From: Candidatus Brocadia sp.
GTDB lineage: Bacteria > Planctomycetota > Brocadiia > Brocadiales > Brocadiaceae
Direction: 5' to 3'
NCBI GenBank assembly: GCA_021650915.1
Contig: CP091279.1
Coordinates: 3,600,001-3,632,000, forward strand
Length of the DNA stretch: 32,000 nucleotides
A model generated the notes under the pieces. The model saw only the letters and a program-made list of their open reading frames with translations. It searched no databases and was not told where the DNA came from. Position numbers and translations under genes: made by a program. Within the stretch, counting starts at the first letter, position 1. Each line of letters begins with the position of its first letter. Of this stretch, positions 1 through 15,762 are shown piece after piece.

Positions 1-740
1 GAGGTAATGTGGTAAGTCCGGATATTCTCATTGATAAATACGGGGCAGACACCCAGCGGCTCTATATCCTTTTCATAGGGCCACCCCAGAAAGATGCCGA
101 GTGGAATGACCGCGGGGTGATTGGCGCTCATCGTTTTCTCAATCGTCTGTGGCAGAAGATTGTTGATTACGAAGACTTCTATATCAGGATACAGCGGGTG
201 GATATTGTTATAAACAACCTCTCTCCTGCGGCAAAGACCCTTTATCGTCAGACGAACCAGACGATCAGGAAGGTCACGGAAGATATGGAGACCTCATGGC
301 ATTTCAATACGGCGATTGCTTCTGTGATGGAGTTGCTCAACCATGTGGATGCATTTCATGTTGCCATACCCACCAGCGCTGCGGAAGAGCTTGATTTTCA
401 TGTCTTCCGCCACTCCATGGAAACAATTCTTTTGCTCATGGCCCCTTTTACCCCACATATCTGTGAGGAACTGTGGGAGGTTATGGGGCACAAGCCAAGC
501 ATCTTTCAAAAACCATGGCCTGCATATGACAAGGATGCAATTCTGGAGGAGGTTATAGAGATTGTTGTTCAGATCAACAGTAAGGTCAAAAGTCGCTTAT
601 CAGTGCCAGTTGATATGAGCGAAGATGAGTTGAAAAGAATCGTATTGAACGATGAACGCATTGCCGGATTTTTGCAGGGCAAGAAGGTTATTAATACCAT
701 CGTAGTGCCGGGCAAATTGGTGAATATTGTGGTAAAATAA
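1..740 (+). CDS. leuS: Leucyl-tRNA synthetase, C-terminal part (5' end lies outside the window)
   Basis: The frame of ORF 9..740 is open to the window edge. The translation (GADTQRLYILFIGPPQKDAEWNDRGVIGAHRFLNRLW ... VVPGKLVNIVVK) matches the conserved C-terminal/anticodon-binding region of bacterial LeuS. Confidence 0.9.
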   Translation, partial: GNVVSPDILIDKYGADTQRLYILFIGPPQKDAEWNDRGVIGAHRFLNRLWQKIVDYEDFYIRIQRVDIVINNLSPAAKTLYRQTNQTIRKVTEDMETSWHFNTAIASVMELLNHVDAFHVAIPTSAAEELDFHVFRHSMETILLLMAPFTPHICEELWEVMGHKPSIFQKPWPAYDKDAILEEVIEIVVQINSKVKSRLSVPVDMSEDELKRIVLNDERIAGFLQGKKVINTIVVPGKLVNIVVK

Positions 741-800
741 ATGTAACAATTTAGCTTTTTGAAAAATCCGTACATTCATAGGTAATTCGCGTAAAACGGA

Positions 801-1124
801 ATGCGTAGCGCGGGTGGTTTATCCCCCGCACAGGCCGACCACAAGGGATCGGCGCTACCTTTTTCAAAAGGGTTCTCATATAATAGTTTCACGACCCATG
901 AAGAGACACGAAAAAGCGCAGTACCCGTGGACAGTCTTCACGGCATTGAAGTAAGACCCATCCGGCGGGGAGAACGTATACGCCAATACCATTATCTTGG
1001 GCTTCACTCTCTGATAGGGGAAAGCATCCGGTATCTGGCGATATAGCAGGGACAATGGCTTGCTTAGATGGGATGGTCAGCAGTGGCATTCAAATGCAAG
1101 GTGCGAGACCACTGGATAGGATAG
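801..1124 (+). pseudogene. Decayed DUF4338-like (mobile-element-associated) gene remnant with three in-frame TAG stops
   Basis: A single frame reads ...IEVRPI..RQYHYLGLHSLIGESIRYLAI*QGQWLA*MGWSAVAFKCKVRDHWIG*. This resembles the HYLG..LVG..LRY.A..G.W.ALLGWS.AA.KC.ARD.WIGW core I recall for DUF4338 proteins. Similarity is lost after 1124. Confidence 0.35.
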
Positions 1125-1251
1125 CCTTCCTTTCTTCAGAATGATGTTTCGGTTGTGCTTCCACTTTTTTAATGCTTATCGAACAGAATAAAGGTTCGCC
1201 GCAGATAACAACGCTTCGGAGACGACGTGGGACTTATGTGATTTTGCATTC

Positions 1252-1974
1252 TTATTTCAAGCGCAGGAATTTATTTTTTTTCAGATACCAGGCAGTAAAA
1301 AATGCAGTGGCAACAATCATAATCAAAATTAACAACGACCACAAGGTAGACTTGCTGGCCTCATAGCCTTGGTCTAAGTATATATCTTTCATGGTCAAAA
1401 GTAACAGCCCCGTTATCCATGCAAAGGGTGTAGCATATTCTTTGACAATCAATCGTTTCCAGTTAAATTCCATACCTTTTATGGTATTCCCTATTCCTGA
1501 AAAGTCAGGAATGATGCGGTTGACTCGTTTGCAATAATCTTTGAACACCTGACCAAACCTTTTTTCCAGGTAGGTCTCCTCTGCGCATATGATCGCTGCG
1601 TAGGCAAAGAAAAGAAACGGGATTCCAAACATAACAAAGAGGAGAGAATTTCCCGCAATCCCAACTCCAAGAAGAATCAAGATATTTCCAAAATAGAGGG
1701 GGTTTCTACAATGTGCAAAAATCCCTTCCTGAACAAGGGTTTCCGCATGCATCCGCTTCTTTTTGCCGCCTCGTTTAATGTAAGCAAACCCAACGGTGAG
1801 CGCCCGCAATATCTGACCGCTCAGTGCTATGGTAATACCAAGGATAATTTCCCATATTTCCGCGAGTTCGCTATTAAAAACCGGCCATGTCCCCTCAAAG
1901 AAAAGCAATGCAAAGACCAGGGGGAAAAGGGCATTCCGGTATCGGAAAAAGAAATTACCTATTTTAACCATCAT
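1252..1974 (-). CDS. Membrane methyltransferase of the isoprenylcysteine carboxyl methyltransferase / phospholipid methyltransferase (ICMT/PEMT) family
   Basis: This 240-aa protein is polytopic and hydrophobic. It carries the family motif LVQEGIFAHCRNPLYFGNILILLGVG (cf. G.Y...RHP.Y.G). Its start overlaps the cmoA stop (ATGA at 1971-1974). Confidence 0.75.
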   Translation of the reverse strand: MMVKIGNFFFRYRNALFPLVFALLFFEGTWPVFNSELAEIWEIILGITIALSGQILRALTVGFAYIKRGGKKKRMHAETLVQEGIFAHCRNPLYFGNILILLGVGIAGNSLLFVMFGIPFLFFAYAAIICAEETYLEKRFGQVFKDYCKRVNRIIPDFSGIGNTIKGMEFNWKRLIVKEYATPFAWITGLLLLTMKDIYLDQGYEASKSTLWSLLILIMIVATAFFTAWYLKKNKFLRLK

Positions 1975-2723
1975 TTTACCGCTACTATTCCACAGAAGTT
2001 ATACCACTTGAAAAACACATCACAATACCGGAATCCTTCCTTGAGCAGGAGTTCTCTGTTTTCCAGCAACTTGTAAGGAATTAATACGTTTTCAAGCGCC
2101 TCTCGTTTCTGTGCGATTTCTAATTCGCTGTACCCATTTCGTCGCTTGAAGTCGTAGTAGTACTTTATGAAGAGACGGTTAAAAATGGAGTCTTCCCCTA
2201 AGATTTTTTCCACAAGGATCAGGCATCCGTTCTCATTCAATCCCCGCAGGATATTGCCAATCAATTTGTCCCGATTTAAAGGCCTGATGAATTGAAGCGT
2301 AAGGAGCATAACCACAACAGAGGCATTCTCGATATTTACGCCTTGATTCAAATCGGCACAGATCAGTTCATGTTCCCTGGAAAAATGGTGCGCGTTGAGT
2401 TTCTGCTTACACTTGGCAAGCATGTCCGGTGAGTAATCGAGGCCAATGAATTTTACTTTACCAGGGATATTTTGGCCCATATTGAGCAGGGTAGTGCCCG
2501 TGGAACATCCGAGATCGTAAATATTTGTTCCTTCAACGGCAAAATCGACTGCCATTTCCACGATCATTTTTTGAGTTTCCCGATAGAACGGAACGGATCG
2601 GTCCAGCATGTCGTCAAATACCGAAGCGACTTTTTCTCCAAAGTTAAAATCCGCTATCGTGGTCATACTTTCCTTGAAAATTTCGTCCTTTGACATAGGT
2701 GAATACCTTGCTTCAGTTTTCAT
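1971..2723 (-). CDS. cmoA: Carboxy-S-adenosyl-L-methionine synthase (CmoA family)
   Basis: The protein resembles E. coli CmoA end to end, as recalled from memory. Matching blocks are FGEKVASVFDDMLDRSVPFYRE, IYDLGCSTGTT, ENASVVVMLLTLQF and DFKRRNGYSELEIAQKREALENV...YNFCGIVAVK. An alternative start lies at M10 (2696). Confidence 0.85.
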   Translation of the reverse strand: MKTEARYSPMSKDEIFKESMTTIADFNFGEKVASVFDDMLDRSVPFYRETQKMIVEMAVDFAVEGTNIYDLGCSTGTTLLNMGQNIPGKVKFIGLDYSPDMLAKCKQKLNAHHFSREHELICADLNQGVNIENASVVVMLLTLQFIRPLNRDKLIGNILRGLNENGCLILVEKILGEDSIFNRLFIKYYYDFKRRNGYSELEIAQKREALENVLIPYKLLENRELLLKEGFRYCDVFFKWYNFCGIVAVK

Positions 2724-3078
2724 TATGCGGGACTTGGGTGAGAGTCGGCGCTATTGCCATGCGCGTATGTTTCCTGATCAAATGTAAATTACGCATATAG
2801 ATGAAGGAGTTTGGCAGATAGGCCAGTATCCCAACCGGGCTGCGTTCCATGATCCAATAGGCACACATAATGATGCTTCCCGCGATGCTCCAATACCAAA
2901 AGGAAATAGGTATCACGCTTTTCCCTGCTTTTTCTGAAACAATCCATTGGATTAAAAACCGGGTGGAAAATATCGCATTGCCAAGGAATCCAAGAATGGC
3001 GAGGTAACTCCAATCCAGCCCGAACAAACGATGTTCCTGGCCAAACCACGTAACAGCTAGTGTAACAGCATAGTTCAT
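2713..3078 (-). CDS. Small 3-TM membrane protein with a lipid-A-biosynthesis N-terminal (LAB_N) type domain
   Basis: This 121-aa protein contains the motif LGFLGNAIFSTRFLIQWIVSEKAGKSVIPISFWYWSIAGS, typical of LAB_N proteins found next to GT2 genes. It overlaps the GT2 stop by 4 nt. Confidence 0.65.
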   Translation of the reverse strand: MNYAVTLAVTWFGQEHRLFGLDWSYLAILGFLGNAIFSTRFLIQWIVSEKAGKSVIPISFWYWSIAGSIIMCAYWIMERSPVGILAYLPNSFIYMRNLHLIRKHTRMAIAPTLTQVPHNEN

Positions 3079-3806
3079 ACATACGCTCCTTCTTGATTGA
3101 GTCTTTCAACGATCTCATACCGCATCAGCCTTTTTTTCATCCACCGTACCGCCAACAAATCGATAAATGCCCTGAATGCCCTGTTCGATATTCCATACTT
3201 TGATTTCCCAAATTTCCGGGGATAGTGGTTTACAACAATTTCAATAACGGTAAACCCTTCCATTTTAAACAGCGTGGGCAGAAACCGATGCATACCGTTA
3301 AACAATTTGATTTGATTCAGACATTCCTTACGATATGCTTTAAGCGAGCAGCCGGTGTCTTTAATATTTTCCCATGAGAGTTTGTTTCTGATAGAATTTG
3401 CCACCGTTGAGGAAATCCGCTTTATCCACGGATCATTTCTCCTCTGCCTCCATCCGCATACCATATCGTACGTAGTGAGTTTTTCCAGTACTTTTGGGAT
3501 GTCCGCAGGGTCATTCTGCATATCGGCATCCATAGAAACAATATATTTCCCCACAGCAGATTTGAAGCCGGCATCCATTGCCGCCGTTTGGCCTGCGTTT
3601 CTCTTGAAATGAATGGTACGGAAGTTTTCATGTTTGTCGCACCATGCATTCAGTTTTTCCGTACTGCCGTCGGTGCTGCCATCGTTCACGAAGACCACCT
3701 CGTAATTTTGTCCCTCCATGGCATGGAGAATAGAATGCCCAAGAAGTGCAATGTTCTCCGCCTCATTGTATAAGGGGATAACAATAGAAATGTCCGGAGT
3801 TTTCAT
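3075..3806 (-). CDS. Family 2 glycosyltransferase, polyprenyl-phosphate sugar synthase type (ArnC/DPM1-like)
   Basis: The N-terminus ISIVIPLYNEAENI, together with FVNDGSTDGS and DADMQNDP (DxD), is a canonical GT2 signature. Confidence 0.85.
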   Translation of the reverse strand: MKTPDISIVIPLYNEAENIALLGHSILHAMEGQNYEVVFVNDGSTDGSTEKLNAWCDKHENFRTIHFKRNAGQTAAMDAGFKSAVGKYIVSMDADMQNDPADIPKVLEKLTTYDMVCGWRQRRNDPWIKRISSTVANSIRNKLSWENIKDTGCSLKAYRKECLNQIKLFNGMHRFLPTLFKMEGFTVIEIVVNHYPRKFGKSKYGISNRAFRAFIDLLAVRWMKKRLMRYEIVERLNQEGAYV

Positions 3807-3808
3807 CG

Positions 3809-5542
3809 TTAGTAAATCTTTTGATGGTTTCTTTTAAATACGAGCGTTACTTGATATTCTTTCGTATGAACATCCAGCGTACTCAGCGTATTGTCCATGA
3901 TTGTGTTTTTTACATTTTCAAAAGTGTGTTTTTCAATAATACAGAGCGGATGGCATTCAGTAGTACCCAGAAATGTTTTCAAATCATGTATATTTTTGAT
4001 CAAAGGCACACTTACATTCAGGTTCAAATTTATTGCATCCCGAAAAGAATTCGCGATATGAAATTCACGAATATCATATGCACGCAGCCCTCCCAGTTCT
4101 TTTTCTAGGGTGCAGGTTAACTTTGCTCCCAGGGATTCGTTTTCATAATACCGGGTAAGGCCATGGATAAACATTCCCCATCCTAGTATGATTGTGAAAA
4201 TACAGATGACGAGACTCATGTGGATTAGTTTATATCTTTGCCGGAGAGATAAGAACATTTTGAACCCTGTCGTAAATACTACTAAAGAGAGAATTACTCC
4301 AATCCATGAATAATTCCAGAGATACGATGGACAAACAACAAGCAGTAATGCCGCTAATGCCGCCATAATCCGGATAATCCAATATGCGAATAATCTTACC
4401 CACAGCGGCTTTACAATTTTCCCTGCCAGGGTATCATCGATGATCCTTGCCATTAGTATTGAAATGGCAGGATAAAGAGGCAGCATATACCGTGAGGATT
4501 TTGCTTTGGCTGCACAGAGAAATACGAATATAACGACAATCCAACAAAACATGAATATGCCCAGTTCATCTCCATCCCGCCATCTTTTGAAGGCATAAAC
4601 AACTACAAAAGGAATGAACAACGACCATGGCAGAAAATCTGACCATATTTTAACGAAATAATAATAGAACGGTTCACTATGACTAATGGGGTCGTTGACA
4701 CGGGTGAGGAATTCCCTCTTTAAGGTGGCCACTAAGGGCTCCAGTCCTATTTTTACGCAAAGTATCAAACAAAATATCCCAATTGGCAGAATAAAGAGTC
4801 CAAAACCCCATCGCCATTTCATTCTTTTAAAGGCATTCAAATCCTTTCTGCATACCAAAAAAGCTGCAATAATGCTCATAACAAAAAGAATTCCAAGGGG
4901 TCCTTTAGTCAAAAAGGTGATTACCAGAGAAAAATAGAATCCGACATAATACCTCTGCTTTTGTTTATATCCTAAATAGAAAAAGTAGAGGGCGAGTGTT
5001 ATACATACGGCAAAGATCATGTCGGTGCGTATTATTCTGCAATGCCAAAAATATTTTTGCGTGGTGGCTAAAATGACAGCGGCAATAAAAGCTGTCCGCC
5101 GATGGAAAAATCTCTGGACAAAGTAATACGTCATAAGGACTCCGGTAAGTCCTGCCAGGGCGCTAGGTATCCTGGCTGTAAATGGAGTTACCTGATGTCC
5201 TATTGAAGAAAAGATGGCAATCAACCACATCAGCATGGGTGGTTTGCTCAAATAAATCGTATCGTGATAGCCCGTTGTCATCCAGTTCCCGGTTTGAATC
5301 ATCTCACGTGACATCTCGGCATATCGTGAAACATCCTTATTCTCAAAACCCCGATTTCCTAATTCAAAAAAGAAGAGAAAGATACTTATACCCACAAGGT
5401 TACAAAACAAATAATGTTTCTTTAAAAATGCACACAATCGATCCATTTCCATTGATAAAATTCTTTCCTTCTTTTTTCCCTCTAAAAATTCCCGGCAGAG
5501 TTCAAAGTGGTATCGACGGGGGGGGCACTGCCACCATTTCAT
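3809..5542 (-). CDS. GT-C fold glycosyltransferase, ArnT / PMT_2 (GT39/GT83-like) family
   Basis: The protein is large and polytopic with an ArnT/PMT_2-like N-terminal block (YAEMSREMIQTGNWMTTGY...YLSKPPMLMWLIA). A more plausible start is MEMDRL at 5452. It ends 2 nt before the GT2 start. Confidence 0.8.
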   Translation of the reverse strand: MKWWQCPPRRYHFELCREFLEGKKKERILSMEMDRLCAFLKKHYLFCNLVGISIFLFFFELGNRGFENKDVSRYAEMSREMIQTGNWMTTGYHDTIYLSKPPMLMWLIAIFSSIGHQVTPFTARIPSALAGLTGVLMTYYFVQRFFHRRTAFIAAVILATTQKYFWHCRIIRTDMIFAVCITLALYFFYLGYKQKQRYYVGFYFSLVITFLTKGPLGILFVMSIIAAFLVCRKDLNAFKRMKWRWGFGLFILPIGIFCLILCVKIGLEPLVATLKREFLTRVNDPISHSEPFYYYFVKIWSDFLPWSLFIPFVVVYAFKRWRDGDELGIFMFCWIVVIFVFLCAAKAKSSRYMLPLYPAISILMARIIDDTLAGKIVKPLWVRLFAYWIIRIMAALAALLLVVCPSYLWNYSWIGVILSLVVFTTGFKMFLSLRQRYKLIHMSLVICIFTIILGWGMFIHGLTRYYENESLGAKLTCTLEKELGGLRAYDIREFHIANSFRDAINLNLNVSVPLIKNIHDLKTFLGTTECHPLCIIEKHTFENVKNTIMDNTLSTLDVHTKEYQVTLVFKRNHQKIY

Positions 5543-5584
5543 TTACCGATGCCGAGATTTCACGATAATTATGAAGCAGGTGTG

Positions 5585-5707
5585 TACTGTAAGCAGGTGA
5601 AATGTAATCGTGTTGGGATTAAATAAATTTTTGTTTATTTTGATGCAATACTGATTACTACTGTAAAAACATGTAATATTTACAGTGAATAATTGTAATC
5701 ATTACAA
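5585..5707. promoter_or_regulatory. Cluster of TGTAA(T) repeats and palindromes upstream of the GT operon (candidate response-regulator or promoter sites)
   Basis: TACTGTAA occurs at 5585 and 5659, and TGTAAT at 5603, 5672 and 5694 (the last two 22 bp apart). There is an inverted repeat ctgtaaa/tttacag at 5661..5685 and a perfect palindrome ttgtaat-c-attacaa at 5693..5707. The function is inferred only. Confidence 0.2.
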
Positions 5708-5833
5708 AAAATGTTTTACCTATTTGCACTGCTTGAGTATACTCTTCCCGCCTGTTTTTAATAGTTAAATTATACCATGCGGTATATGAACAGGCGATGA
5801 ACGTAAAATTAATATTTTGTAATCTTGGAGAGG

Positions 5834-7222
5834 CTAACAGGTTGGTAGAGTAACGGTGAAGGTACTTCCTTTATGCAACTCACTGTTAACTATTATTGTG
5901 CCATGATGAGATTTGACGATCCATTGACAGATGCTTAGTCCAAGTCCGCTGCTGGTGTGGTTTGCCGTTCTAACCTTGCATGCCCTGTAAAAACGGTCGA
6001 ATATGCGAGGAAGATCTTCCTGTGAAATGCCAATACCGTTATCCCGAATAGAAATCTTTACACATCCGTTGTCTTTGTAAAGGGACAGTTTAATTGTCCC
6101 ATTAGCCTGAGTATACTTTACGGCATTGTCTATTAAATTTAAGAGCATCATCCGGATAAGCAATTCATCCCCATCGATAAATGCATCTTCCATCTTTTCC
6201 ATTGATACGAAGATGTTTTTCGGTTCAGCAATAAGCTTTAGTTGCTCTGCAATATCCATGACAACTGGATGAAGATTCATCCGTTTCTTCTGCAACTCAT
6301 ATTGTCCTGCGTCAGCCTTTGCCAGAATAAACAGACTCTCTATAATTTTCGAAAACCGCCCCAAATCCTCCAAGGTATTTGCAAGAATTTGCTGATAGCT
6401 ACAAATATCCCTTTCACTAGACAAGGCGACTTCTATTCCCGCCTTCATAATGGCGATAGGTGTGCGTAATTCATGAGAGGCATCGGTCGTGAATTGGCGG
6501 ACCTGGCTAAATGAATTCTCCAGGCGGGTCAGCATCTCATTAATTACTCCCGAAAGCTCGCTGATCTCGTCTTTCACAGGATGTATTACCAGTCTCTTTC
6601 CCAGGTGTTCAGTTTCTATCTTCTGGAGATCTTTTATCATGCAATCTATGGGTCTTAGCGCCTTTTTTGCCATAAAGCGACCACCCAACCAGCTGCCGAC
6701 AATCGCAAGGAATCCCAAAGCCGTGAGGATGAGCAAAAAGATGTTGAGTGCAGTATCTTTGTTAATAACAATTCCGATTTGAATTAATTGCCGGGTGTCC
6801 TTTATGGGTATCGTAATAATGCGTAAAAGACGCCCCTTTGAGTTCTTTACGGTCTTAAAGTATATCTTTCCTGAAAAGATTTCTTTAATTTGATGCCTCT
6901 GTAACGGCAAGTGAGCATCCGTTAAATTTCCAGACCGGAATTGAAGATTTCCTGCGGGACCAAGTATTGCGATATATTTTCCCGCAGCCCATTCTTCATC
7001 TCTTTCATTTGAGATTTGACTTACATATTCCTTGAAGGAATTCATATTAATTTGTGCATGATGAGCAATACCGACAGCTTCTTCTGTAAGCCCAACATCT
7101 ATACGTTTATTATTTGCATGAGAAAATGCGACGTAGGTTAGCAAGCTGAAGAGAAAGAGCATTCCACCGAAAATGCTCGTATACCAGAGGGAAAGTTTGG
7201 TGCGAATCGTCCAGGAGATCAT
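5834..7222 (-). CDS. Sensor histidine kinase (CusS/heavy-metal-sensor-like architecture: 2 TM, HAMP, HisKA, HATPase_c)
   Basis: The H-box is FTTDASHELRTPIA, the N-box is LLNLIDNAVKYT, and the G-boxes are DNGIGI and GLGLSI. The N-terminus RTKLSLWYTSIFGGMLFLF is typical of the CusS/CopS group. Confidence 0.9.
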   Translation of the reverse strand: MISWTIRTKLSLWYTSIFGGMLFLFSLLTYVAFSHANNKRIDVGLTEEAVGIAHHAQINMNSFKEYVSQISNERDEEWAAGKYIAILGPAGNLQFRSGNLTDAHLPLQRHQIKEIFSGKIYFKTVKNSKGRLLRIITIPIKDTRQLIQIGIVINKDTALNIFLLILTALGFLAIVGSWLGGRFMAKKALRPIDCMIKDLQKIETEHLGKRLVIHPVKDEISELSGVINEMLTRLENSFSQVRQFTTDASHELRTPIAIMKAGIEVALSSERDICSYQQILANTLEDLGRFSKIIESLFILAKADAGQYELQKKRMNLHPVVMDIAEQLKLIAEPKNIFVSMEKMEDAFIDGDELLIRMMLLNLIDNAVKYTQANGTIKLSLYKDNGCVKISIRDNGIGISQEDLPRIFDRFYRACKVRTANHTSSGLGLSICQWIVKSHHGTIIVNSELHKGSTFTVTLPTC

Positions 7223-7896
7223 GGTTTTTCATCTTTCATAACATATCCTACACCTTTAATCGTGTAAATCAGCTTATGGATACGGCCCTTATCTATTTTA
7301 TTTCTCAGGCGATTTACAAAGACGTCAATTACATTAGTAAGACTATCAAAATTATAATCCCATACATGCTCTGCAATCTGGGTGCGGGTTAATACGGCAT
7401 TCAGGTTTCTCATAAAAAATTCCAACAGGGCAAATTCTTTATTGGTGAGGTCTATGGGTTGTCCATTGCGGTAAAGGCGGTGAGCTGCTATATCCAAAAT
7501 AAGATCTGCTACCGTTAACTGGATTTGGCAATTGACTTTTCCCCTTCTGAGCAATGCGCGGATTCGTGCTATTAGTTCTATAAAGGAAAAGGGTTTTACC
7601 AGGTAATCGTCCGCTCCTAAATCTAATCCGCGTGCCTTGTCCTCAGCGGCGTCCTTTGCAGTTAAGAGAATAACCGGCATATTCTTGCCGTTTTTTCTCG
7701 CCTCGCGCACTATCTCAAGGCCATTTTTCTTGGGAAGCAAAATGTCCAGGATAACAAGGTCATACTCATTGGTATTGAGCATAAAGCGGCCTTCTTCACC
7801 ATCATTACTCACATCAGTGGCAAAGTGGTTTTCTTCAAGCCCCTTTTTGATATAGGTGGCTAATTTTTTTTCATCCTCTACGACCAATATTCTCAT
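7219..7896 (-). CDS. OmpR-family response regulator (CusR/PmrA-like)
   Basis: The receiver domain reads MRILVVEDEKKL...DLVILDILLPKKNG...LTAKD. The winged-helix C-terminus reads LTNKEFALLEFFMRN...TIKGVGYVM. It overlaps the kinase start by 4 nt. Confidence 0.9.
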   Translation of the reverse strand: MRILVVEDEKKLATYIKKGLEENHFATDVSNDGEEGRFMLNTNEYDLVILDILLPKKNGLEIVREARKNGKNMPVILLTAKDAAEDKARGLDLGADDYLVKPFSFIELIARIRALLRRGKVNCQIQLTVADLILDIAAHRLYRNGQPIDLTNKEFALLEFFMRNLNAVLTRTQIAEHVWDYNFDSLTNVIDVFVNRLRNKIDKGRIHKLIYTIKGVGYVMKDEKP

Positions 7897-8436
7897 ATAG
7901 TATTATTCTATAAAATTCAAAAATTACCGCTATTTTTACCCACCCCCGAATCGCCTCCTGGGAGGGGCCGTATTGTCAAAATTTTTTATAAATTTTTAGA
8001 GAATATCTTTTATTTTCAGTATCTTGCGATAACAGTACTTTATTAAAAAATGTTTGAGAAAAAATATTTTTAAGTCATAAGCAGAGTTGAATCCAACTCA
8101 CTACAAGGTCAGACATATCAACAAGATTGATCGATACTGGAACCTCTGTCTTGTTGCATGGACTCTCACCTACTGGATAAGACAAAATTGCCTATCTTAC
8201 GAAAATCCTTGAAACGAAACCTGCCATCTTCAACGAAATTAAACAGGCTGTCAATTCCATGCTCGAATTCGCCTCTACCAGTGCCTTATCAAAGAACGAA
8301 AAACTTGCCTATGACTATTTTAAAATTAAATCCAAACGCCTTAAGAAAAAAATGCGCCGCTTAAATTTTTAACAAAGTAATGCATGGTAAATTGAACCAG
8401 TGAGAGGTATAAGATATTTGTGCGGTTTGAAGTGAT

Positions 8437-8469
8437 AGAGGGAGGGAATGCTTTACATTTCCTCCCTCT
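8437..8469. terminator. Strong stem-loop (14-bp stem, 5-nt loop), possible terminator
   Basis: The sequence agagggagggaatg-cttta-catttcctccctct has one G.T pair. It lies 41 nt downstream of the minus-strand ferredoxin gene. On the plus strand it is followed by ttgctt. No clean U-tract is present on either strand. Confidence 0.35.
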
Positions 8470-8509
8470 TTGCTTAATGTTAAAAAGTATGACTTCTTAT
8501 ATACCGTAT

Positions 8510-8962
8510 TTATGCAGGCTGGTATTTGGCGTGTTTCTCGGTATATACGAGCGCCCCGGTTTTGCAGGCCTCTACGCATGCCATGGTCTCAAAATCCTTG
8601 CAATCGTCACAATTGAAGGCGAAATTGAGTTCGGTATCCTTCGTGATAGCCCCAAAAGGACATTGTGTCACGCACGCCCAGCACCCGACGCATTTCTTGG
8701 TGTCAATAACAACGTTCCCATCTTCATATTTCGTAATGGCTCCGTATTCACAGGAAGCCATACACTTGGGCTTTGCGCAGTTCTGGCATACGGTCATATG
8801 GGGTTTATCTTTTCTTGTCGATACTTGTAACCGGTAACGGGGCTTAGGGGTTTCTGCGAAGGCCTCGTAGATATTTTTGGATACCGAATGCCGCACGCCG
8901 CACTCTATCATGCACTGTTTACAGGTAACGCATTTATCTTTTACAAATTTCTTTTTTAGCAT
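8510..8962 (-). CDS. Polyferredoxin-type 4Fe-4S protein (CooF/HycB-like, about four Cys clusters)
   Basis: Four Cys groups are present: CVTCKQCMIEC, CQNCAKPKCMASC, CVGCWACVTQCP and CDDCKDFETMACVEAC. Confidence 0.75.
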   Translation of the reverse strand: MLKKKFVKDKCVTCKQCMIECGVRHSVSKNIYEAFAETPKPRYRLQVSTRKDKPHMTVCQNCAKPKCMASCEYGAITKYEDGNVVIDTKKCVGCWACVTQCPFGAITKDTELNFAFNCDDCKDFETMACVEACKTGALVYTEKHAKYQPA

Positions 8963-9052
8963 GTGTTGACACTCCTCAATCTTCGTATAAAAATTTCATA
9001 TTCAAATTTTATATGATAATGCATTAAGGCGCAATCAAAAAGATACGACCGA

Positions 9053-10591
9053 TCAAGATTCTTCAGCGGATGAAGCGGCGGCGTTCTCCAGAATGGCGCT
9101 TACGAGACCGGGGATGGTGTATTCATCTGCCTTAATGGCGATATGGAGTCCCATCTCTTCAGCGGTCTGTGTCGTAATTGGGCCGATACTGGCATACTGG
9201 ACGTGGCTATTCAACGCCAGCAGGTTTTCCTTTCCGATGATCTCAACAAAATTCCGCACCGTTGACGAGCTGGTAAACGTAACGATATCGACCTCCCCGT
9301 TCCTGAGTTTATCAACGAGATTCATATTCCTGGGTTGCGCCATGATGGTCTTATATGCCACCAAATCAGTTACTTTCCCGCCCAATTTTTGTAGCTCATC
9401 GGGTAGAAAACTTCGTGCAATATCCGCCCGCGGCAGCAGGAATCTTTCGCCCTTTATCGTTGTCACCTTCTTCAACTCTTCTACCACGGATTCTGCAACA
9501 AATTTGGGTGGTCTGCAATTGACCCGCAGGTAATACTTCTTGATGCCGTCCTCCGTCGCCGGACCAATGGCACAGACCTTGAGGCCTTTCAGGTCACGGA
9601 TATCCTTTCCCAGCTCAAACAATCGCTGGAAGAAGGCATCGACACCGTTGATGCTGGTAAAGACCAGCCAATCGTAAGACTGGATGCTGTTTATCGCCGC
9701 ATCCAGCGGTTGAATGGTGTCGGGTTTTGCAATCTCTATGGTGGGAAATTCAATGACCCGCGCGCCATATTCGCAGAGCTTATCGGCAAATTCACTGGCC
9801 TGCTCCCTTGAACGGGTAACAACGATCGTCTTTCCGAACAATGGCTTAGACTCAAACCAGTTGAGCTGATCACGGAGTTTTACCACTTCGCCGACGATCG
9901 TAATTGCCGGCGGTTTTATCTCTCTGGTTTTTTCTACGATCGTACTCAGCGTTCCTATTACCGTTTTTTGCTGGGTCGTGGTTCCCCACCGGATAACAGC
10001 AACGGGTGTGTCTTTGGAACGGCCGTGTTTCATGAGTTGTTCTGTGATGTAAGGGAGATTTTTAATTCCCATATAAAAGGCAAGGGTGCCGATGCCGGTG
10101 CTGATCTTTGACCAATCAATGGAACTTTCGTCTTTTGTCGGATCTTCGTGTCCGGTGATCAGCCCAAAGGTCGAAGTAAAGTCACGATGGGTAACCGGAA
10201 TACCGGCATAACTGGGGGTTGCAATGGCAGCGGTAATGCCAGGAACGACCTCAAAAGGGATGTGGTTTTCATAAAGCACGATGGCCTCCTCCCCGCCACG
10301 TCCAAAGATATAAGGGTCGCCTCCCTTTAGCCGGGTTACGATTTTATCTTCCATGGCTTTTTTTACAATCAGGTTATTAATATCATCCTGTTCCATGGTA
10401 TGTGCGCCTCCCTGCTTTCCGACATAAATAAATTCTGCATCCGGCTTAGCAACTTTGAGGAGGTCTGCATTTACCAAATAATCGTAAATAATGACATCGG
10501 CTTTTTTAATACATTCCAGGCCTTTTACGGTGATAAGACGTGGGTCACCCGGACCAGCACCCACAAGGTATACCAGGTTGCGCTTCATCAA
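9053..10591 (-). CDS. cobA-hemD: Bifunctional uroporphyrinogen-III C-methyltransferase / uroporphyrinogen-III synthase (CobA-HemD fusion)
   Basis: The N-terminus VYLVGAGPGDPRLITVKGLECIKKADVIIYDYLV...RLKGGDPYIFGRGGEE is the SUMT signature. The C-terminal roughly 250 aa (GKTIVVTRSREQA...FTSINGVDAFF...FTSSSTVRNF) is HemD-like. Confidence 0.9.
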   Translation of the reverse strand: MMKRNLVYLVGAGPGDPRLITVKGLECIKKADVIIYDYLVNADLLKVAKPDAEFIYVGKQGGAHTMEQDDINNLIVKKAMEDKIVTRLKGGDPYIFGRGGEEAIVLYENHIPFEVVPGITAAIATPSYAGIPVTHRDFTSTFGLITGHEDPTKDESSIDWSKISTGIGTLAFYMGIKNLPYITEQLMKHGRSKDTPVAVIRWGTTTQQKTVIGTLSTIVEKTREIKPPAITIVGEVVKLRDQLNWFESKPLFGKTIVVTRSREQASEFADKLCEYGARVIEFPTIEIAKPDTIQPLDAAINSIQSYDWLVFTSINGVDAFFQRLFELGKDIRDLKGLKVCAIGPATEDGIKKYYLRVNCRPPKFVAESVVEELKKVTTIKGERFLLPRADIARSFLPDELQKLGGKVTDLVAYKTIMAQPRNMNLVDKLRNGEVDIVTFTSSSTVRNFVEIIGKENLLALNSHVQYASIGPITTQTAEEMGLHIAIKADEYTIPGLVSAILENAAASSAEES

Positions 10592-10799
10592 AACAAAAAC
10601 CTTTCAAGTTTATAAGAAACGATATGGGATTTCATTTGTACGCAAATGAACACAAGGTGACAGCGCTACAATCGAAAGAACCTACTCCCGAATTCCACTC
10701 TTTAACAGGAAGGAAAGTGCGGAAAGGTAAAACAACTTATACAAAATAATATTGAAAAGTTCTGGATTAATCAACGGATTTGTTTGCAGATTTTTTGCG

Positions 10800-12719
10800 C
10801 TATGGTCTTTGTGAACGTCCTTGCTGATAGGCCAATTCGTCTTTTTTTGCCATAATTCGCTCCACGGCTTCAACTGCATTCTCCCGGACATCGGTATTTT
10901 TGTTCTTCACCAGTCCCTGGAGTGCAGCAAGTGCGTTTGGACTGCCAATTCTGCCCAGCGCCCATGCTGCAGAACTCACGACAGGGGGCTCTTTATCCTT
11001 CAATGCCCAGATGAGTGCCGTGACGGCGCTTTCATCGCCAATCCAACCAAGGGTTAGCGCGGTACGTTCTCGTGTTTCTTTGTGTATTTCATGCAATGAA
11101 CTTATCAGCGCCTTTACTGCGGGATGACCAATCTTTACCAGCGCCCATCCCGCCCTGCGTCTGGTACCTTCTTCTTTGTCGTTCAGGGCACTTATCAGCA
11201 GCGGAACAGCCCTTTGGCCTATTGCGGCTAATCCCCATGCAGCCTTTGTGCGCGCCCATGCCGCATCTTCTCCGGCGTCGGTAACCAGGATTTTAGCAAG
11301 GGCATTCATGGCGGAGTCGCTGCCGATCTTGCCCAGCGCTTCGACACAACCGCTTTTAACATGCCAGCTTTGTTCTTTTGCGAATACCTTCATGATTGGA
11401 AAAACTGAACCCCGGTCTCCGAGGGCCCCCAGAGTTCGGACAATGTCATACTCAACGTTCAGATCAGGTTCTTTTAATAAAACTTCGTGAAGCGCCGGAA
11501 CCGATTGTGCCGCGTTCAGTCTTTTCAGCGCGAGAACTGCTTCCCGCCTCACTGCCGTATTTATATCCTTCAGAAGGGGTTCTATGTTCGCGTACACACT
11601 GTCGTCACCGCAGAATCCGAGCGACCAGACGGCATGTTGTCGCACCTGCGGACTGCTGTCGCTGAGAAGCGTTACGAGGTGTGGTACCGTGCATCCCGGC
11701 GGCAACACCATTAACGCCATTGCAGCGGCCCGTGCCTTGTCATAATCTGCCCCCTCGATGGTTTTTATCAGGCCTTTTACTTGTTCCTGAAGGTGCGGGG
11801 CATGGTTGTCAGCGTCTTGCCGGGAACGGTTTGTTTCCCGGCCTTTTGGTCTCTTTTGGGCGCTTGTCTGGTTTGTGATGTTCAGAATATCCGTGGCAAC
11901 GCATGGATAATCAACCATGATGACGTCCACTCCTGCTTTGATCCGATTCTTTATAACCGTTCTGCTGTCATTTCCAAGGATGATCGAGAATGCATAGTTT
12001 TTTTCCTCATGGATAAGATCAATCTTTTCCTTTGTCGTTTCTTCTGCAGGCAAAAAAATCAGTTCTTTTCCTTCCGATTCTTCACCTGTCATGGTTACAT
12101 TTCTCATTGTTCCCCAGAAATATACCTGCGAAGACATTTCGCATTCCCCGACGACCTGCAGTACCTGCTCTTCCAAACAAGTCTGCCTTACATTCAGAAT
12201 CAGCTTGAGATCGTTTAATTTGCAAAACTTCAAGGCATCAGAGAGGAGAGGTACCCGTTCTTTCTGAAACTCACGGCTACGCCATGAACCAGCATCATAT
12301 TGTTGTATCTCAGCGTATACTAATTGATCGACACGCCCTTTTCCATCGGTCGTCCGGTCGATTGTTTCATCGCACATCAGGACAAGCTGATTGTCCTTGG
12401 TTTGTCTGATGTCAACGGCAATACCATCAATTCCCAACTCGGCAACCCGTCGTAATGCAGCAAAGGTATTTTCCGGGACGTCTTCAAGCACGCCGTGGTG
12501 CGCAAAGACCTCGACCTGTTTTGTGTCCGCGGCCAATGCGGAGTAATACGGAGGAAGCAGGAGGAATACCATAGCTGCGCAGAGTTGCAACCGCACCCCT
12601 CCAGGGCTCAGCGGAGTAAGCTTGGCCAAACAGAAAGGGAGAAGAAGAATGTTATAGAAAACGTGCATAAAAAAGAATTTTTTGTACAGGAATGTTCTCA
12701 TGATCAAAATATGACGCAT
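10800..12719 (-). CDS. Secreted glycerophosphodiester phosphodiesterase (GDPD) domain fused to about 9 HEAT (PBS-lyase type) repeats
   Basis: The N-terminus is hydrophobic. The GDPD block is VFAHHGVLEDVPENTFAALRRVAELGIDGIAVDIRQTKDNQLVLMCDETIDRTTDG. The C-terminal half carries repeated units ending in ALG.IG (for example VRQHAVWSLGFCGD, VEALGKIGS, AGWALVKIGH, AAWALGRIGS). Confidence 0.75.
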   Translation of the reverse strand: MRHILIMRTFLYKKFFFMHVFYNILLLPFCLAKLTPLSPGGVRLQLCAAMVFLLLPPYYSALAADTKQVEVFAHHGVLEDVPENTFAALRRVAELGIDGIAVDIRQTKDNQLVLMCDETIDRTTDGKGRVDQLVYAEIQQYDAGSWRSREFQKERVPLLSDALKFCKLNDLKLILNVRQTCLEEQVLQVVGECEMSSQVYFWGTMRNVTMTGEESEGKELIFLPAEETTKEKIDLIHEEKNYAFSIILGNDSRTVIKNRIKAGVDVIMVDYPCVATDILNITNQTSAQKRPKGRETNRSRQDADNHAPHLQEQVKGLIKTIEGADYDKARAAAMALMVLPPGCTVPHLVTLLSDSSPQVRQHAVWSLGFCGDDSVYANIEPLLKDINTAVRREAVLALKRLNAAQSVPALHEVLLKEPDLNVEYDIVRTLGALGDRGSVFPIMKVFAKEQSWHVKSGCVEALGKIGSDSAMNALAKILVTDAGEDAAWARTKAAWGLAAIGQRAVPLLISALNDKEEGTRRRAGWALVKIGHPAVKALISSLHEIHKETRERTALTLGWIGDESAVTALIWALKDKEPPVVSSAAWALGRIGSPNALAALQGLVKNKNTDVRENAVEAVERIMAKKDELAYQQGRSQRP

Positions 12720-12723
12720 ATCA

Positions 12724-14706
12724 CTATTTTTGCGAACGTATTGTTTCGTTGCTCATGATTTGCCAGTGTGGTCTGCCTTCCCAGGAAACCTGATTTTCTG
12801 CCATATTAAAATAGACCTTTTCCGAAAACGTCCGCGAACCGCCCTTTCGCAATTCCGCCTTTGGGTTGCCCGTCAACAAGGCGACATTCTGGATCAGGTC
12901 CCAGGTGAATAGCGATCCAAATCCCTCGCTGTTTTCCAGGCGTTTGCTGGAAAAATAGACGTTGCCGGTGGCAATAATCTTATGGATATTCTGATCGTTG
13001 CCGAGATAGGCATCAATCTGGTCTGCCTGTAATTTTTGCCCGCCTCGTGTAGCTTCTGCTTCTTCATAGAAGCTTACTTTCCTGAGCGTATCATAGTACA
13101 TCATTTTTTTTGCCCAAGTCACTTTTAGATCCGTCTCTTCAGCGCTCTGATTGGGAAGATTTCCTTCGCCTCGTTCATATAAACTCCCCTTGCCTTCACA
13201 CAATACCGTCTTCCCGTCTTCATAAAATAAAACCCTGGGAACGAGAATTTGTCGTCTATCCCCCTCTCTCAGCAGGGCAAAGGGTTGTCCTCTTAGGATG
13301 GTGACTTTATTTTTTGCATCCCACGTAGCCCGGTCTCCGACAGCCTCGCTGAAGAGGTCATCTCTTTTGTCGATGATGTGAATTTTGTCTGTTGCCTTGA
13401 ACGACTGTATAGTGAAATCGCCGCCGCTGAACTTCACATTCAGATTATCGCAGAGCAGGGTGGAATTTTCTTTCTGAACCTCAATATCCTTCTCAAAACT
13501 AGCCTCCCGCGTGTTGTCCAGGAAATTCATTTTCCCTTCCCATTTTACGCTAATCGTATTGTCGTCTGTGCCGGTTCCGGCGCCAGCCTTTTTTTTACCG
13601 GACTTTTCCTTAATCTTTGCTTTTAAATTGCCCGGACTTGGAATGTCTATTTTCCCGGTGTCTTTATAAAAAATTATTTTCTGTGCATCAATGTTGAGGT
13701 CATCTTTTGCAAATTCTGCCTTTTGTGTATCTTCCAGGATTGCGCTTTGGGTGTTAACATCCCAGGTCAGAAAACCTCCCTTGGCGATTTTTGTCCCCTG
13801 GGATGCGAGCACATTTCCGCTGGCAATGGCCTGCCTTGTTTGTTTTGTCTGAGGGTCGAGAAAAATAACGAGTTTATCGGAAAAAACGGTTGAACTCCCT
13901 TTTTGTATCTTCACATGGTCGTTGAAGGTCATGATGTTTGATTCGGATTGCCGGTCGAAAATGAGTTGGCCGCTGGAACGAATAACCGTTTTTTCGAATG
14001 GTGTTTTCTGTGTGCCGTTCTCGTCCGAAGAGGGGAGATGCGCTTCCTCCGGTTGTTCTGTTGGTGAGGTATCGTCCGTAGACAGGAAAAAGAGGTCGTT
14101 TTTAATGCCGTCCATTTCCATTTCCGCGTCTCTTTTAATCCACATCTTCTTGCTCACAAGGTCTATTTCACAGCCTTGCCCGACGATTTTTATCCCTTTC
14201 CCATGGATGGTAACGGGTTCATCCGTGCAAACGAACTCTTTTTCCGGTAAATACCGCAGATAGTCCGTATCAAGCCGGGTATCGGGGTCGAAATGAATGA
14301 CCACGTTATCCGAGAGAGAGCCTTCGTCTGAAATGCTGTTCATCTCTCCCGCCCTGGAGGTAATGAAAACAGACTGCGTTCCCTCCTCACTCTGGGAATA
14401 GTCCCTGACTTCAATTTCCGGGGTGACAATCTTGTAGACATTATCGTTGAGCAGGAAGGTATTCTCCCCGCGCATGATTACTACCTCTTTCCCCTGTTCG
14501 TCGTAACTCGGCATGGTTAGCCCCGCTACCGCCTGCGTTACGGTTTCTGTGCCGGCTCCGGGGATATTCTGCAATTGCCTGGAGGGAGAGGGATTTTGCT
14601 TCGCGCTCCGTGGTTCTTCTTTTGACTCGGATAGAATCAGCGATACGATAATAGAGAGCAGGCAGGCAACAGGGATACCGATGAGTACGTATCTTCGTTT
14701 GGTCAT
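12724..14706 (-). CDS. Membrane-anchored LptC-like domain followed by about three LptA/OstA-like beta-jellyroll repeats
   Basis: The protein starts with an N-terminal TM anchor. An LptC-like block follows (LTMPSYDEQGKEVVIMRGENTFL...LRYLPEKEFVCTDEPVTIHGKGIKIVGQGCEIDLVSKKMWI). Three segments then show the LptA pattern I.s..l.fD......F...V....G......DKL (for example IRSSGQLIFDRQSESNIMTFNDHVKIQKGSSTVFSDKLVIF). The gene ends 4 nt before the GDPD-HEAT start. Confidence 0.5.
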   Translation of the reverse strand: MTKRRYVLIGIPVACLLSIIVSLILSESKEEPRSAKQNPSPSRQLQNIPGAGTETVTQAVAGLTMPSYDEQGKEVVIMRGENTFLLNDNVYKIVTPEIEVRDYSQSEEGTQSVFITSRAGEMNSISDEGSLSDNVVIHFDPDTRLDTDYLRYLPEKEFVCTDEPVTIHGKGIKIVGQGCEIDLVSKKMWIKRDAEMEMDGIKNDLFFLSTDDTSPTEQPEEAHLPSSDENGTQKTPFEKTVIRSSGQLIFDRQSESNIMTFNDHVKIQKGSSTVFSDKLVIFLDPQTKQTRQAIASGNVLASQGTKIAKGGFLTWDVNTQSAILEDTQKAEFAKDDLNIDAQKIIFYKDTGKIDIPSPGNLKAKIKEKSGKKKAGAGTGTDDNTISVKWEGKMNFLDNTREASFEKDIEVQKENSTLLCDNLNVKFSGGDFTIQSFKATDKIHIIDKRDDLFSEAVGDRATWDAKNKVTILRGQPFALLREGDRRQILVPRVLFYEDGKTVLCEGKGSLYERGEGNLPNQSAEETDLKVTWAKKMMYYDTLRKVSFYEEAEATRGGQKLQADQIDAYLGNDQNIHKIIATGNVYFSSKRLENSEGFGSLFTWDLIQNVALLTGNPKAELRKGGSRTFSEKVYFNMAENQVSWEGRPHWQIMSNETIRSQK

Positions 14707-14731
14707 GATATTCTAAAAACAAGAATAGTTT

Positions 14732-14887
14732 TTACTTTAAAATTCTTTGCCATATAATCTGTTTTTTCTTTTCTTGCAGGCTTTCCCGAAGTTTCTCCTT
14801 CTTTTCGTCAAAATGAATTTCCCTGTGGTGGTTAGGACACAGGCAAGCAATATATTTAAGGTGTCTTCTCCCTCCCCATTTGCTCAT
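14732..14887 (-). pseudogene. HNH-nuclease C-terminal remnant (51 codons)
   Basis: The minus-strand translation is MSKWGGRRHLKYIACLCPNHHREIHFDEKKEKLRESLQEKKKQIIWQRILK. The motif LCPN.HR.IH is the distal half of an HNH motif, and the proximal half is absent. Confidence 0.4.
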
Positions 14888-14899
14888 GAAAATTCGTGT

Positions 14900-15073
14900 T
14901 TACTTGTAAATATCACCTCTCGGATCAATCTCATATCTAAACCTTCCTTCTAATTTTCCAGCAAGCTTTTTTATGTGAGAACCACGAAAAGGGTTATCCC
15001 TAATTTTTTCAACAGCGTTGTTTATTTTTTTAGTTATACGATCACCCAGCGTTTTATAGTACGTAGCTGCCTT
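14900..15073 (-). pseudogene. RelE/ParE-family toxin body, truncated and separated from its start codon by a repeat insertion
   Basis: The minus-strand translation is KAATYYKTLGDRITKKINNAVEKIRDNPFRGSHIKKLAGKLEGRFRYEIDPRGDIYK*, which fits the RelE/ParE pattern (...I..NP..G..LKG.L.G..R.R). The orphan start MSWDKIKRYV* sits at 15348..15316, on the other side of the repeat. Confidence 0.5.
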
Positions 15074-15305
15074 TTTATAGTATTACCGTATAAAATCTTT
15101 TTTCTTTTGCAAGTTTTTTCGCAACCTTATTTACCCCTTATCAGAAGGTACCGTTTATTTATAAGGGAAGGATTGCTTCGCTTCACTCGCAATGACAATG
15201 TACCGTATGTCATCAAAGACATAGCCAGTGTCATTGCGAGGGTCTTGTCCGAAGCAATCTCCCGCTTTCACAACGAGGACTTGGTTACGGCTATGCTGCG
15301 CTATG
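15064..15305. repeat. Copy A of a roughly 240-bp MITE-like composite repeat with an 89-bp nested inverted-repeat core (15171..15259)
   Basis: The core is gattgcttcgcttcactcgcaatgaca...tgtcattgcgagg...cgaagcaatc. The core and both flanks (tatagtattaccgtataaaa..., ...ggctatgctgcgctatg) align with the reverse complement of 26298..26530. Boundaries are approximate. Confidence 0.75.
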
Positions 15306-15329
15306 GAGTGTAATTTCAAACATACCGTT

Positions 15330-15655: not shown

Positions 15656-15740
15656 ATTTTTCAACCTCTCATCATCTTCTCTTTTTAGCAAGTTTTCTCA
15701 CGGCCCCTTGCCCCTTTCTCAAGGGGGATTTCCTCACGTA

Positions 15741-15762
15741 GGGGCGAACGGCCGTTTGCCCC
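15741..15762. repeat. 22-nt GC-rich near-perfect palindrome (REP-like)
   Basis: The sequence ggggcgaacggccgtttgcccc is self-complementary apart from one G.T pair. A second hairpin, cccctt-tctc-aagggg, lies at 15711..15726. Both are just downstream of kdsC. Confidence 0.5.

Follow-up and report, generated by a model that had tools for sequence, protein, structure and literature searches.

Carboxy-S-adenosylmethionine (Cx-SAM) is made by CmoA, which converts S-adenosylmethionine (SAM) and prephenate to Cx-SAM and phenylpyruvate. In E. coli, cmoA and cmoB adjoin and overlap, and CmoB, a soluble Rossmann-fold enzyme, uses Cx-SAM for the cmo5U34 modification of tRNA. Here we describe a locus in which a CmoA homologue has a different partner. 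It lies in a 32,000-nucleotide stretch of DNA from Candidatus Brocadia sp. (contig CP091279.1, positions 3,600,001 to 3,632,000), referred to as the window. On the minus strand, the gene of the CmoA homologue is followed by that of an integral membrane protein of the ICMT/PEMT superfamily, here called the ICMT-like enzyme. These two genes are a self-contained module found in many bacterial phyla. Their near-constant pairing suggests that the group is destined for a lipid of the membrane or envelope, and not for tRNA. Judging from the sequences, the two proteins are likely to form a cascade in which the membrane enzyme uses Cx-SAM to carboxymethylate a lipid.

Like the CmoA/CmoB system, the module has a dedicated cmoA gene adjoining and overlapping the gene of the presumed Cx-SAM consumer, and CmoA keeps its active-site residues. 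The difference lies in the partner. Since it is embedded in the membrane and is not a soluble Rossmann-fold protein, tRNA is an implausible acceptor.

Acceptors other than tRNA have been published for Cx-SAM: TglE/TglF leads to 3-thiaglutamate by way of a peptide thiol, MccS and the MccB C-terminal domain lead to a McC-like peptidyl-cytidylate, and phage CmoA/CmoX leads to 5-carboxymethylcytosine in DNA (PMC10491745, PMC12783734). In each of them, as here, a CmoA homologue has been recruited beside a methyltransferase-like enzyme with a non-tRNA carboxymethyl acceptor (PMC10491745, PMC12783734). As with CmoX, which differs from ordinary C5-methyltransferases at an active-site position, the partner enzyme here departs from its SAM-using relatives at such a position. 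The published consumers are soluble, belong to class I, and have peptide, nucleotide, or DNA as substrate, whereas the present enzyme sits in the membrane and its acceptor is presumably a lipid. Another difference is that in some lineages a dedicated chorismate mutase accompanies the module, either by fusion or as an operon gene, which is not reported for TglE/TglF, MccS/MccB, or CmoA/CmoX in PMC10491745 and PMC12783734. The carboxymethyl group is contacted by basic residues in CmoB (Lys91, Arg315) and CmoX (Arg350). In the ICMT-like clade, alignment shows Arg13, Arg57, Arg68, Arg174, and Lys232-Lys233 to be conserved, any of which might or might not serve in this way. The preliminary description of this locus, made from the sequence alone, held that an envelope-directed, non-tRNA use of Cx-SAM would be new biology. 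As far as non-tRNA use goes, this statement is outdated because TglF, the MccB C-terminal domain, and CmoX have been published. What stands is the narrower point: a membrane-embedded Cx-SAM consumer with a lipid or envelope acceptor would be new. It appears to be undescribed, and in the literature searched no report was found of CmoA with isoprenylcysteine methyltransferases or of Cx-SAM-dependent lipid modification.

In the window, the module is the end of a block of five minus-strand open reading frames (ORFs), which the ORF list places at the coordinates first reported and which Pfam and NCBIfam assign to the same families:

3809 to 5542, minus strand: GT-C fold glycosyltransferase (PMT_2; distantly ArnT-like), PF13231 71.7 bits, PF02366 48.8 bits
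3075 to 3806, minus strand: GT2 polyprenyl-phosphate sugar synthase-like glycosyltransferase (distantly ArnC-like), PF00535 115.8 bits
2713 to 3078, minus strand: LAB_N small three-helix membrane protein, PF07578 90.7 bits
1971 to 2723, minus strand: CmoA homologue, predicted Cx-SAM synthase, TIGR00740 258.1 bits against a cut-off of 193.3
1252 to 1974, minus strand: ICMT/PEMT-superfamily integral membrane transferase, predicted Cx-SAM-dependent carboxymethyltransferase, PF04191 39.9 bits against a cut-off of 25

The genes are tightly packed. Read from the sequence, the GT-C and GT2 genes are separated by a 2-nt gap, GT2 and LAB_N share an ATGA overlap, and the cmoA stop and the ICMT-like start form another ATGA at 1971-1974, as had been noted. 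The exception is the 11-nt overlap listed between LAB_N and CmoA, which probably arises from the choice of the longest ORF. CmoA homologues are 241 aa long and begin with MSKDEIF, so the true CmoA start is probably the ATG at 2696; this would leave a 16-nt spacer with AAGG within it. The first ~30 residues of the GT-C ORF are likewise of doubtful reality. The ICMT-like protein of the window is 100% identical to one from Candidatus Brocadia fulgida (P0121), and the source is accordingly assigned to that planctomycete.

Conservation of the cmoA-ICMT linkage in relatives had been set beforehand as the neighbourhood test of the idea, and the linkage proves to be kept in both directions. Scanning one genome per species with the membrane protein gives 79 loci, and CmoA is directly upstream on the same strand in 78 of them; 36 of the pairs overlap (mostly as ATGA) and 18 more lie within 20 nt. 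These loci come from Brocadiaceae, Verrucomicrobiota, Gamma-, Beta-, and Deltaproteobacteria, Methylomirabilales, Nitrospira, Acidobacteriota, and Bacteroidota (many Chitinophagaceae, and Sphingobacteriales). Note that some labels of metagenome-assembled genomes (MAGs), e.g., Williamsia and Bifidobacteriaceae, are probably binning errors. The reverse scan, of metagenomes with CmoA, gives 80 loci, 75 of which have room downstream to be assessed; the membrane gene is directly downstream in 74/75, and the sole exception (L108) retains N- and C-terminal remnants of a decayed membrane gene. Because the linkage is kept across phyla, CmoA and the ICMT-like enzyme are considered to be functionally coupled. 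A Candidatus Brocadia sapporoensis locus (L007) was considered as an exception and dismissed, since it has two tandem LAB_N–CmoA–ICMT copies. The two copies (5722-7572 and 10812-12647) are ~5 kb apart and have equal tblastn scores.

The pair stands alone in most genomes. A universally conserved third gene was found neither by ORF clustering round the 79 loci nor in Pfam neighbour censuses. The clustering yields only NifU-like, MFS, saccharopine dehydrogenase, and PEPCK genes, all in Chitinophagaceae and explained by housekeeping synteny, and the only recurrent neighbours in other phyla are two-component systems, PF04185 phosphoesterases, LAB_N, and PMT_2. That the pair can travel without other genes is seen in a conjugative plasmid of Rhizobium sp. 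T136 (pT136b; L178), where two inverted IS6 copies bracket cmoA and the ICMT-like gene only. The copies (4164-4943 and 7069-7848) are 780 nt each and 100% identical, an arrangement like that of a composite transposon. With the pair alone between two identical IS6 copies, it must have moved as a self-sufficient unit.

The first component of the module is probably a Cx-SAM synthase, a reading based on family membership and active-site residues. The homologue passes TIGR00740, the general CmoA equivalog model, with the score given above, and its Arg199 is kept; for these reasons it is accepted as a probable Cx-SAM synthase. In CmoA, Arg199 makes a salt bridge to the Cx-SAM carboxylate, a trait that sets it apart from ordinary methyltransferases (PMC3663124). 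Identity to E. coli CmoA is 40% across residues 4-242, reaching the C-terminus, in agreement with the earlier remark that the match is specific and not that of a generic class I methyltransferase. A second CmoA model of the enterobacterial type (NF011995; PRK15451) is failed (191.9 bits against a cut-off of 285). Tyr39, Asp62, Gly64, Ser66, Asp89, Glu164, Lys198, and Arg199 are invariant in both CmoA alignments, and Asn132 of CmoA is aligned with Leu, Val, or Cys in most members of the clade.

The second component has the ICMT fold according to a structural model. At the sequence level, it is above the Pfam gathering threshold for PEMT (PF04191, listed above) and just under that for ICMT (PF04140; 19.2 bits against 24). 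A profile of the family matches M. acetivorans ICMT (Ma-ICMT, 4A2N) in the PDB at E 9e-10, across the cofactor-binding core. An AlphaFold2 (AF2) model built from 80 aligned diverse sequences has a mean predicted local distance difference test (pLDDT) value of 92.1 and a predicted template-modelling (pTM) score of 0.88. Its best Foldseek matches are 4A2N, 5VG9, and 5V7P, at probability 1.00 with modest TM-scores of 0.3-0.5, followed by the related sterol reductases. The ICMT-family identity given in the preliminary description is thus upheld by structure prediction. This model replaced a first one from a 24-sequence alignment (pLDDT 76.8), whose fold match was unconvincing (E 0.76).

The fold and the C-terminal cofactor-binding core are shared with ICMT (Ste14; Ma-ICMT, 4A2N; Tribolium ICMT, 5V7P) and PEMT, and a Glu-Glu pair is kept as in ICMTs, together with three residues of the signature motif (Arg, Pro, and Tyr). 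The clade differs from ICMTs at three points. While the solved ICMTs have RHPxY as the signature motif (RHPMY in 4A2N, RHPSY in 5VG9), the window protein has RNPLY, and RNPxY is found in 146 of 150 diverse representatives. In the profile alignment, the Asn falls on Ma-ICMT His126, which a docking study on 4A2N (PMC12643142) places at the active-site cavity; note that the roles of cofactor-pocket residues are taken solely from this docking paper and should be read with caution. Second, the position of Ma-ICMT Tyr121 is occupied by an invariant Phe. Third, there is an extra C-terminal extension of ~80 residues, with conserved Trp172, Arg174, Tyr180, and Lys232-Lys233. The family is large: a search of representative proteins with the membrane protein gives 178 clusters at E<1e-30 and thousands of more distant ones, currently annotated as "isoprenylcysteine carboxylmethyltransferase family protein".

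LmtA of Leptospira is a lipid A Kdo2 1-phosphate O-methyltransferase, which adds a methyl group from SAM. It is the top NCBIfam match of the window's membrane protein (TIGR04571), and the match is collinear over nearly the full length (residues 4-225 on model positions 9-233 of 252). Both are membrane enzymes of the same kind with the cofactor site toward the cytoplasm, and genes acting on lipid A are found near some clade members. The score is 78 bits against a cut-off of 325, however, and therefore the membrane protein is not an LmtA orthologue; this comparison is one of model scores. A weak match to MddA is also found in NCBIfam. OlsG, an ornithine lipid N-methyltransferase, was weighed as another relative; the review consulted only ties it to the phospholipid N-methyltransferases, and no claim is made.

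An independent indication of which cofactor the membrane enzyme uses comes from chorismate mutase. Prephenate, the co-substrate of CmoA, is the product of chorismate mutase, and it has no known role with a methyltransferase save as the CmoA co-substrate (PMC10491745). In five longer relatives, the membrane domain is fused to a type II chorismate mutase (Pfam PF01817, E 1e-15 to 1e-18), and a follow-up search finds about 28 protein clusters of such fusions. CmoA is the next gene in 4/4 fusion contexts examined; these CmoAs score 218-226 bits on TIGR00740 (cut-off 193.3) and keep Arg199 and Glu164. The same association exists without fusion. One operon (L156) consists of CmoA, ICMT-like, and chorismate mutase genes. 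Another (L176) has the order response regulator, kinase, CmoA, ICMT-like, and a 98-aa chorismate mutase, and a separate housekeeping chorismate mutase–prephenate dehydrogenase (CM-PDH) gene is 2.5 kb off. Tethering a chorismate mutase to the membrane enzyme makes sense only if the membrane enzyme depends on the product of CmoA. The preliminary description had left the donor as Cx-SAM or simply SAM; of the two, Cx-SAM is favoured by the chorismate mutase link, which is seen in fusions as well as in operons.

The fusions also imply that the C-terminus is cytoplasmic, which fits a cofactor site facing the cytoplasm. With the cofactor site on that side, access to the acceptor has to be from the inner leaflet of this membrane. 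The following scheme can then be proposed, in which we infer every catalytic step. Chorismate mutase would provide prephenate, by a dedicated enzyme in some lineages and the housekeeping enzyme in others. The CmoA homologue would convert SAM and prephenate to Cx-SAM, as its family and active-site residues suggest. The ICMT/PEMT-fold enzyme would take Cx-SAM from the cytoplasmic side and pass the carboxymethyl group (-CH2-COO-) to a nucleophile of a membrane-embedded acceptor, with release of S-adenosylhomocysteine (SAH). The nucleophile may belong to an inner-leaflet lipid of the cytoplasmic membrane, as a phosphate, hydroxyl, carboxylate, or amine group.

Several points weigh against this scheme. 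The case for the activities of the CmoA clade and the membrane enzyme is predictive, being drawn from sequence comparison. To our knowledge, the nearest characterised relatives (ICMT, PEMT, and LmtA) all use ordinary SAM. The one remaining exception among the 79 genome loci, a Steroidobacteraceae MAG (L050), has no CmoA within 10 kb and keeps the RNP motif. In a minority of the relatives (L164, L177), the partner is a divergent CmoA-like protein (4512-5222 and 5274-5984, respectively) that falls short of the CmoA cut-off, has NKxRS instead of QKRxxLEN, and lacks the aligned Lys-Arg. The L164 protein scores 140 bits on TIGR00740, under the cut-off, and the product of these divergent enzymes may not be Cx-SAM. 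The Cx-SAM pool is possibly shared with tRNA modification, the cmoB search covering the window and the comparison loci. As for the acceptor, the neighbouring genes that hint at it (PagL, PAP2, LAB_N, and GT-C, described below) are each confined to few lineages, and the neighbours of the pair in Chitinophagaceae are housekeeping genes.

The SAM dependence of the characterised ICMT, PEMT, and LmtA enzymes, together with LmtA being the top, full-length match at 78 bits, would suit an alternative in which the membrane protein is an ordinary SAM methyltransferase, acting on lipid A phosphate like LmtA or on lipid nitrogen like PEMT, while CmoA serves a CmoB encoded elsewhere for tRNA cmo5U. We regard this as distinctly unlikely. 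An independent CmoA hardly accounts for the near-universal two-way adjacency across phyla with translational coupling, for the pair being the only cargo between two IS6 copies, or for the family-wide His-to-Asn change in the signature motif, and it is the membrane enzyme itself that is fused or operon-linked to chorismate mutase. The question of CmoB bears on both sides. By tblastn with E. coli CmoB, no CmoB was found in the 32-kb window, as already noted from the sequence, nor in the 176 comparison loci (1.79 Mb in total), which are loci and not whole genomes; the search thus reached the window and the flanks of the loci only, and leaves room for a CmoB farther away. E. coli differs in having cmoA and cmoB in one operon. 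Planctomycetes, Bacteroidetes, and Verrucomicrobia go unmentioned in the main text of a paper on how cmoB is distributed (Sakai et al. 2019, PMC6599085).

Other domain fusions are found besides those with chorismate mutase. In P0354 and P0329, the ICMT-like domain is joined via an extra transmembrane segment to a periplasmic domain, OmpA in the former and DUF2141 in the latter. P0261 (507 aa) has tandem ICMT-type domains, the first with RNPMY (the clade motif) and the second with the canonical RHPLY. The tandem could combine a carboxymethyl transferase with a carboxyl methyl-esterase-like step. ICMT family chemistry is carboxyl methyl esterification, and a tandem of RNP and RHP domains would suit carboxymethylation followed by methyl esterification. 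It could thus be argued that the clade is CmoM-like, with SAM as the methyl donor for esterifying a carboxymethyl group (or some other carboxylate) placed by a different Cx-SAM transferase. Against this, neither neighbour clustering nor the Pfam censuses found a third conserved transferase gene, and the IS6-bounded cassette has two genes only. Moreover, in P0261 the domain of the clade is the RNP-type one, whereas the RHP-type domain is the extra one. A methyl-esterifying role for the clade is very improbable, and carboxymethylation by the RNP-type enzyme remains the preferred reading.

For the acceptor in this reading, the best-supported guess is lipid A, by analogy with LmtA, or else a different envelope lipid or a lipid-linked precursor. 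Genes near the pair give hints in the same direction. LAB_N is directly upstream of the pair in four loci outside Brocadia (L006, L089, L090, and L161), and DedA is directly downstream in the last of these. GT-C genes are near the pair in L118, L156, and L169, PagL is two genes upstream in L165 amid Czc-like RND genes, and homologous PAP2 phosphatases are found near it in L177 and in plasmid pT173d of Ensifer canadensis. This envelope-gene context leans to lipid A or another envelope lipid as the candidate acceptor. A PF04185 phosphoesterase (phospholipase C / acid phosphatase family) is among the downstream neighbours in five loci, with large ORFs downstream of the pair (L010, L033, L093, L115, L121, and similar), perhaps by lineage synteny alone.

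The preliminary description had placed the module in an ArnT/ArnC-like envelope operon and had suggested the product of the adjacent glycosyltransferases as a possible acceptor. Neither is generally supported. GT2 is found beside the pair only in Brocadiaceae, and LAB_N and GT-C in few other lineages, so that an Arn-like operon as the conserved unit was rejected. In Brocadia itself, the logic of GT2, small membrane protein, and GT-C downstream of a two-component system does resemble the Arn system (PmrHFIJKLM). The scores are far under the cut-offs, however: 97 bits against 567 for the GT-C protein on the ArnT model (NF009784), and 135 bits against 529 for GT2 on the ArnC model (NF007986). Equivalents of ArnA, ArnB, and ArnD were not found in the Brocadia operon (ORF list and Pfam). 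Further differences from Arn are the lineage-specific glycosyltransferase context and the regulator, which is CopRS/CzcRS-like and not PmrAB-like. The regulatory genes and the other signals of the operon are as follows:

7219 to 7896, minus strand: OmpR-family response regulator, heavy-metal (CopR/CzcR/SilR) subfamily, Pfam Response_reg and Trans_reg_C, TIGR01387 268.7 bits, cut-off 279.2
5834 to 7222, minus strand: sensor histidine kinase (HAMP-HisKA-HATPase by Pfam), CopS/CzcS type, best NCBIfam match TIGR01386 257.9 bits, cut-off 292.55
5543 to 5833, minus strand: AT-rich intergenic region of 291 nt between the kinase and GT-C genes, from the sequence
1197 to 1213, minus strand: weak terminator-like hairpin ~40 nt past the ICMT-like stop, from a consensus scan

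The response regulator and kinase genes, which share a 4-nt overlap, are upstream of the five-gene unit on the same strand. The PmrA model gives only 192 bits on the response regulator, and PmrA and PmrB are clearly below the CopR/CopS-type models; PmrAB-type regulation was therefore rejected for the CopRS/CzcRS type. The 291-nt region may hold a regulated promoter for the five-gene unit; a consensus scan of its minus strand gave no strong match to sigma-70. The hairpin may mark the operon end, on weak evidence. The LAB_N protein is a candidate flippase or partner for the GT2/GT-C system. In Brocadia, the module would thus be inserted in an operon with a polyprenyl-phosphate-sugar glycosylation system, in which GT2, LAB_N, and GT-C would build, flip, and transfer a polyprenyl-phosphate-linked sugar (cf. 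ArnC, ArnE/F, and ArnT). Because the module shares the operon with these genes downstream of a CopRS/CzcRS-type system, both modifications are probably deployed together. The outcome would be envelope remodelling under regulatory control, possibly in answer to metal or periplasmic stress.

Two-component systems are beside the pair in ~16/168 loci from several phyla. For the neighbouring response regulators of other lineages, CopR/CzcR/SilR is the top-scoring model in 9/9 full-length cases tested, two of which exceed its cut-off. Metal-handling genes near the pair echo these regulators. A copper-type P-type ATPase with YHS/HMBD (7951-13089) flanks the pair in L167, and Czc-like RND efflux systems (322-5859 and 10711-16150) flank it in L165.

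MddA, a member of the ICMT family, methylates methanethiol. The weak match to MddA, the recurrent heavy-metal-type two-component systems, the metal efflux and P-type ATPase genes in L165 and L167, and the lack of lipid-biosynthesis neighbours in most genomes would all suit carboxymethylation of a small hydrophobic or soluble molecule (a thiol, a metal or metalloid species, or a quinone-like metabolite) in CopRS/CzcRS-controlled stress response or detoxification. A lipid acceptor better explains why LAB_N, GT-C, PagL, PAP2, and DedA recur in several lineages and why the membrane enzyme resembles LmtA, a lipid A enzyme, over its full length, and the OmpA and DUF2141 fusions to periplasmic domains indicate the envelope. 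A small-molecule acceptor is accordingly unlikely. For the lipid acceptor, a wider picture may be sketched tentatively: in many diderms (anammox planctomycetes, Verrucomicrobiota, Chitinophagaceae, methanotrophs, Nitrospira, and rhizobia), carboxymethylation from Cx-SAM might endow lipid A, or some other lipid of the membrane, with a new anionic or derivatisable head-group, with induction by CopRS/CzcRS-type systems under metal or periplasmic stress.

Cx-SAM is a rare cofactor, with four consumers known to us, all soluble; their substrates are tRNA, peptides, a nucleotide antibiotic, and phage DNA. If the proposal is correct, a widespread membrane-embedded consumer extends carboxymethyl transfer to lipids or the cell envelope. 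It would be the first carboxymethyltransferase embedded in the membrane, and Cx-SAM would be directed to a lipid for the first time. It would give a function to the large family annotated only as above, would predict novel envelope chemistry in anammox bacteria, nitrifiers, methanotrophs, and rhizobia, and would provide a natural membrane carboxymethyltransferase for biocatalysis. Many cmoA genes labelled "tRNA modification" by annotation pipelines are probably not tRNA genes. Cultured, tractable carriers of the module include Ensifer adhaerens, Rhizobium spp., Parafilimonas terrae DSM 28286, Arcticibacter sp. MXS-1 (CP169244), and Planctomycetales bacterium ZRK34 (CP050848.1).

The window further contains lipopolysaccharide (LPS)-related genes that fit the envelope theme; they lie up to 20 kb from the operon and do not adjoin it:

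12724 to 14706: LptC + LptA/LptD_N fusion-like gene
16619 to 17836: KdsD-type SIS+CBS gene
21015 to 22043: LpxK gene

Downstream of the ICMT-like gene, the next gene is the convergent 3' end of leuS (9-740), and an 81-aa ORF (801-1046, plus strand) lies between the two. The window also has a uroporphyrinogen methylase and HemD fusion (9053-10591), a GDPD and HEAT-repeat gene (10800-12719), a multihaem cytochrome (26808-28265), and a type III polyketide synthase (PKS) / KAS III-like gene (29598-30692), which as far as can be seen have no visible tie to the CmoA–ICMT-like module.

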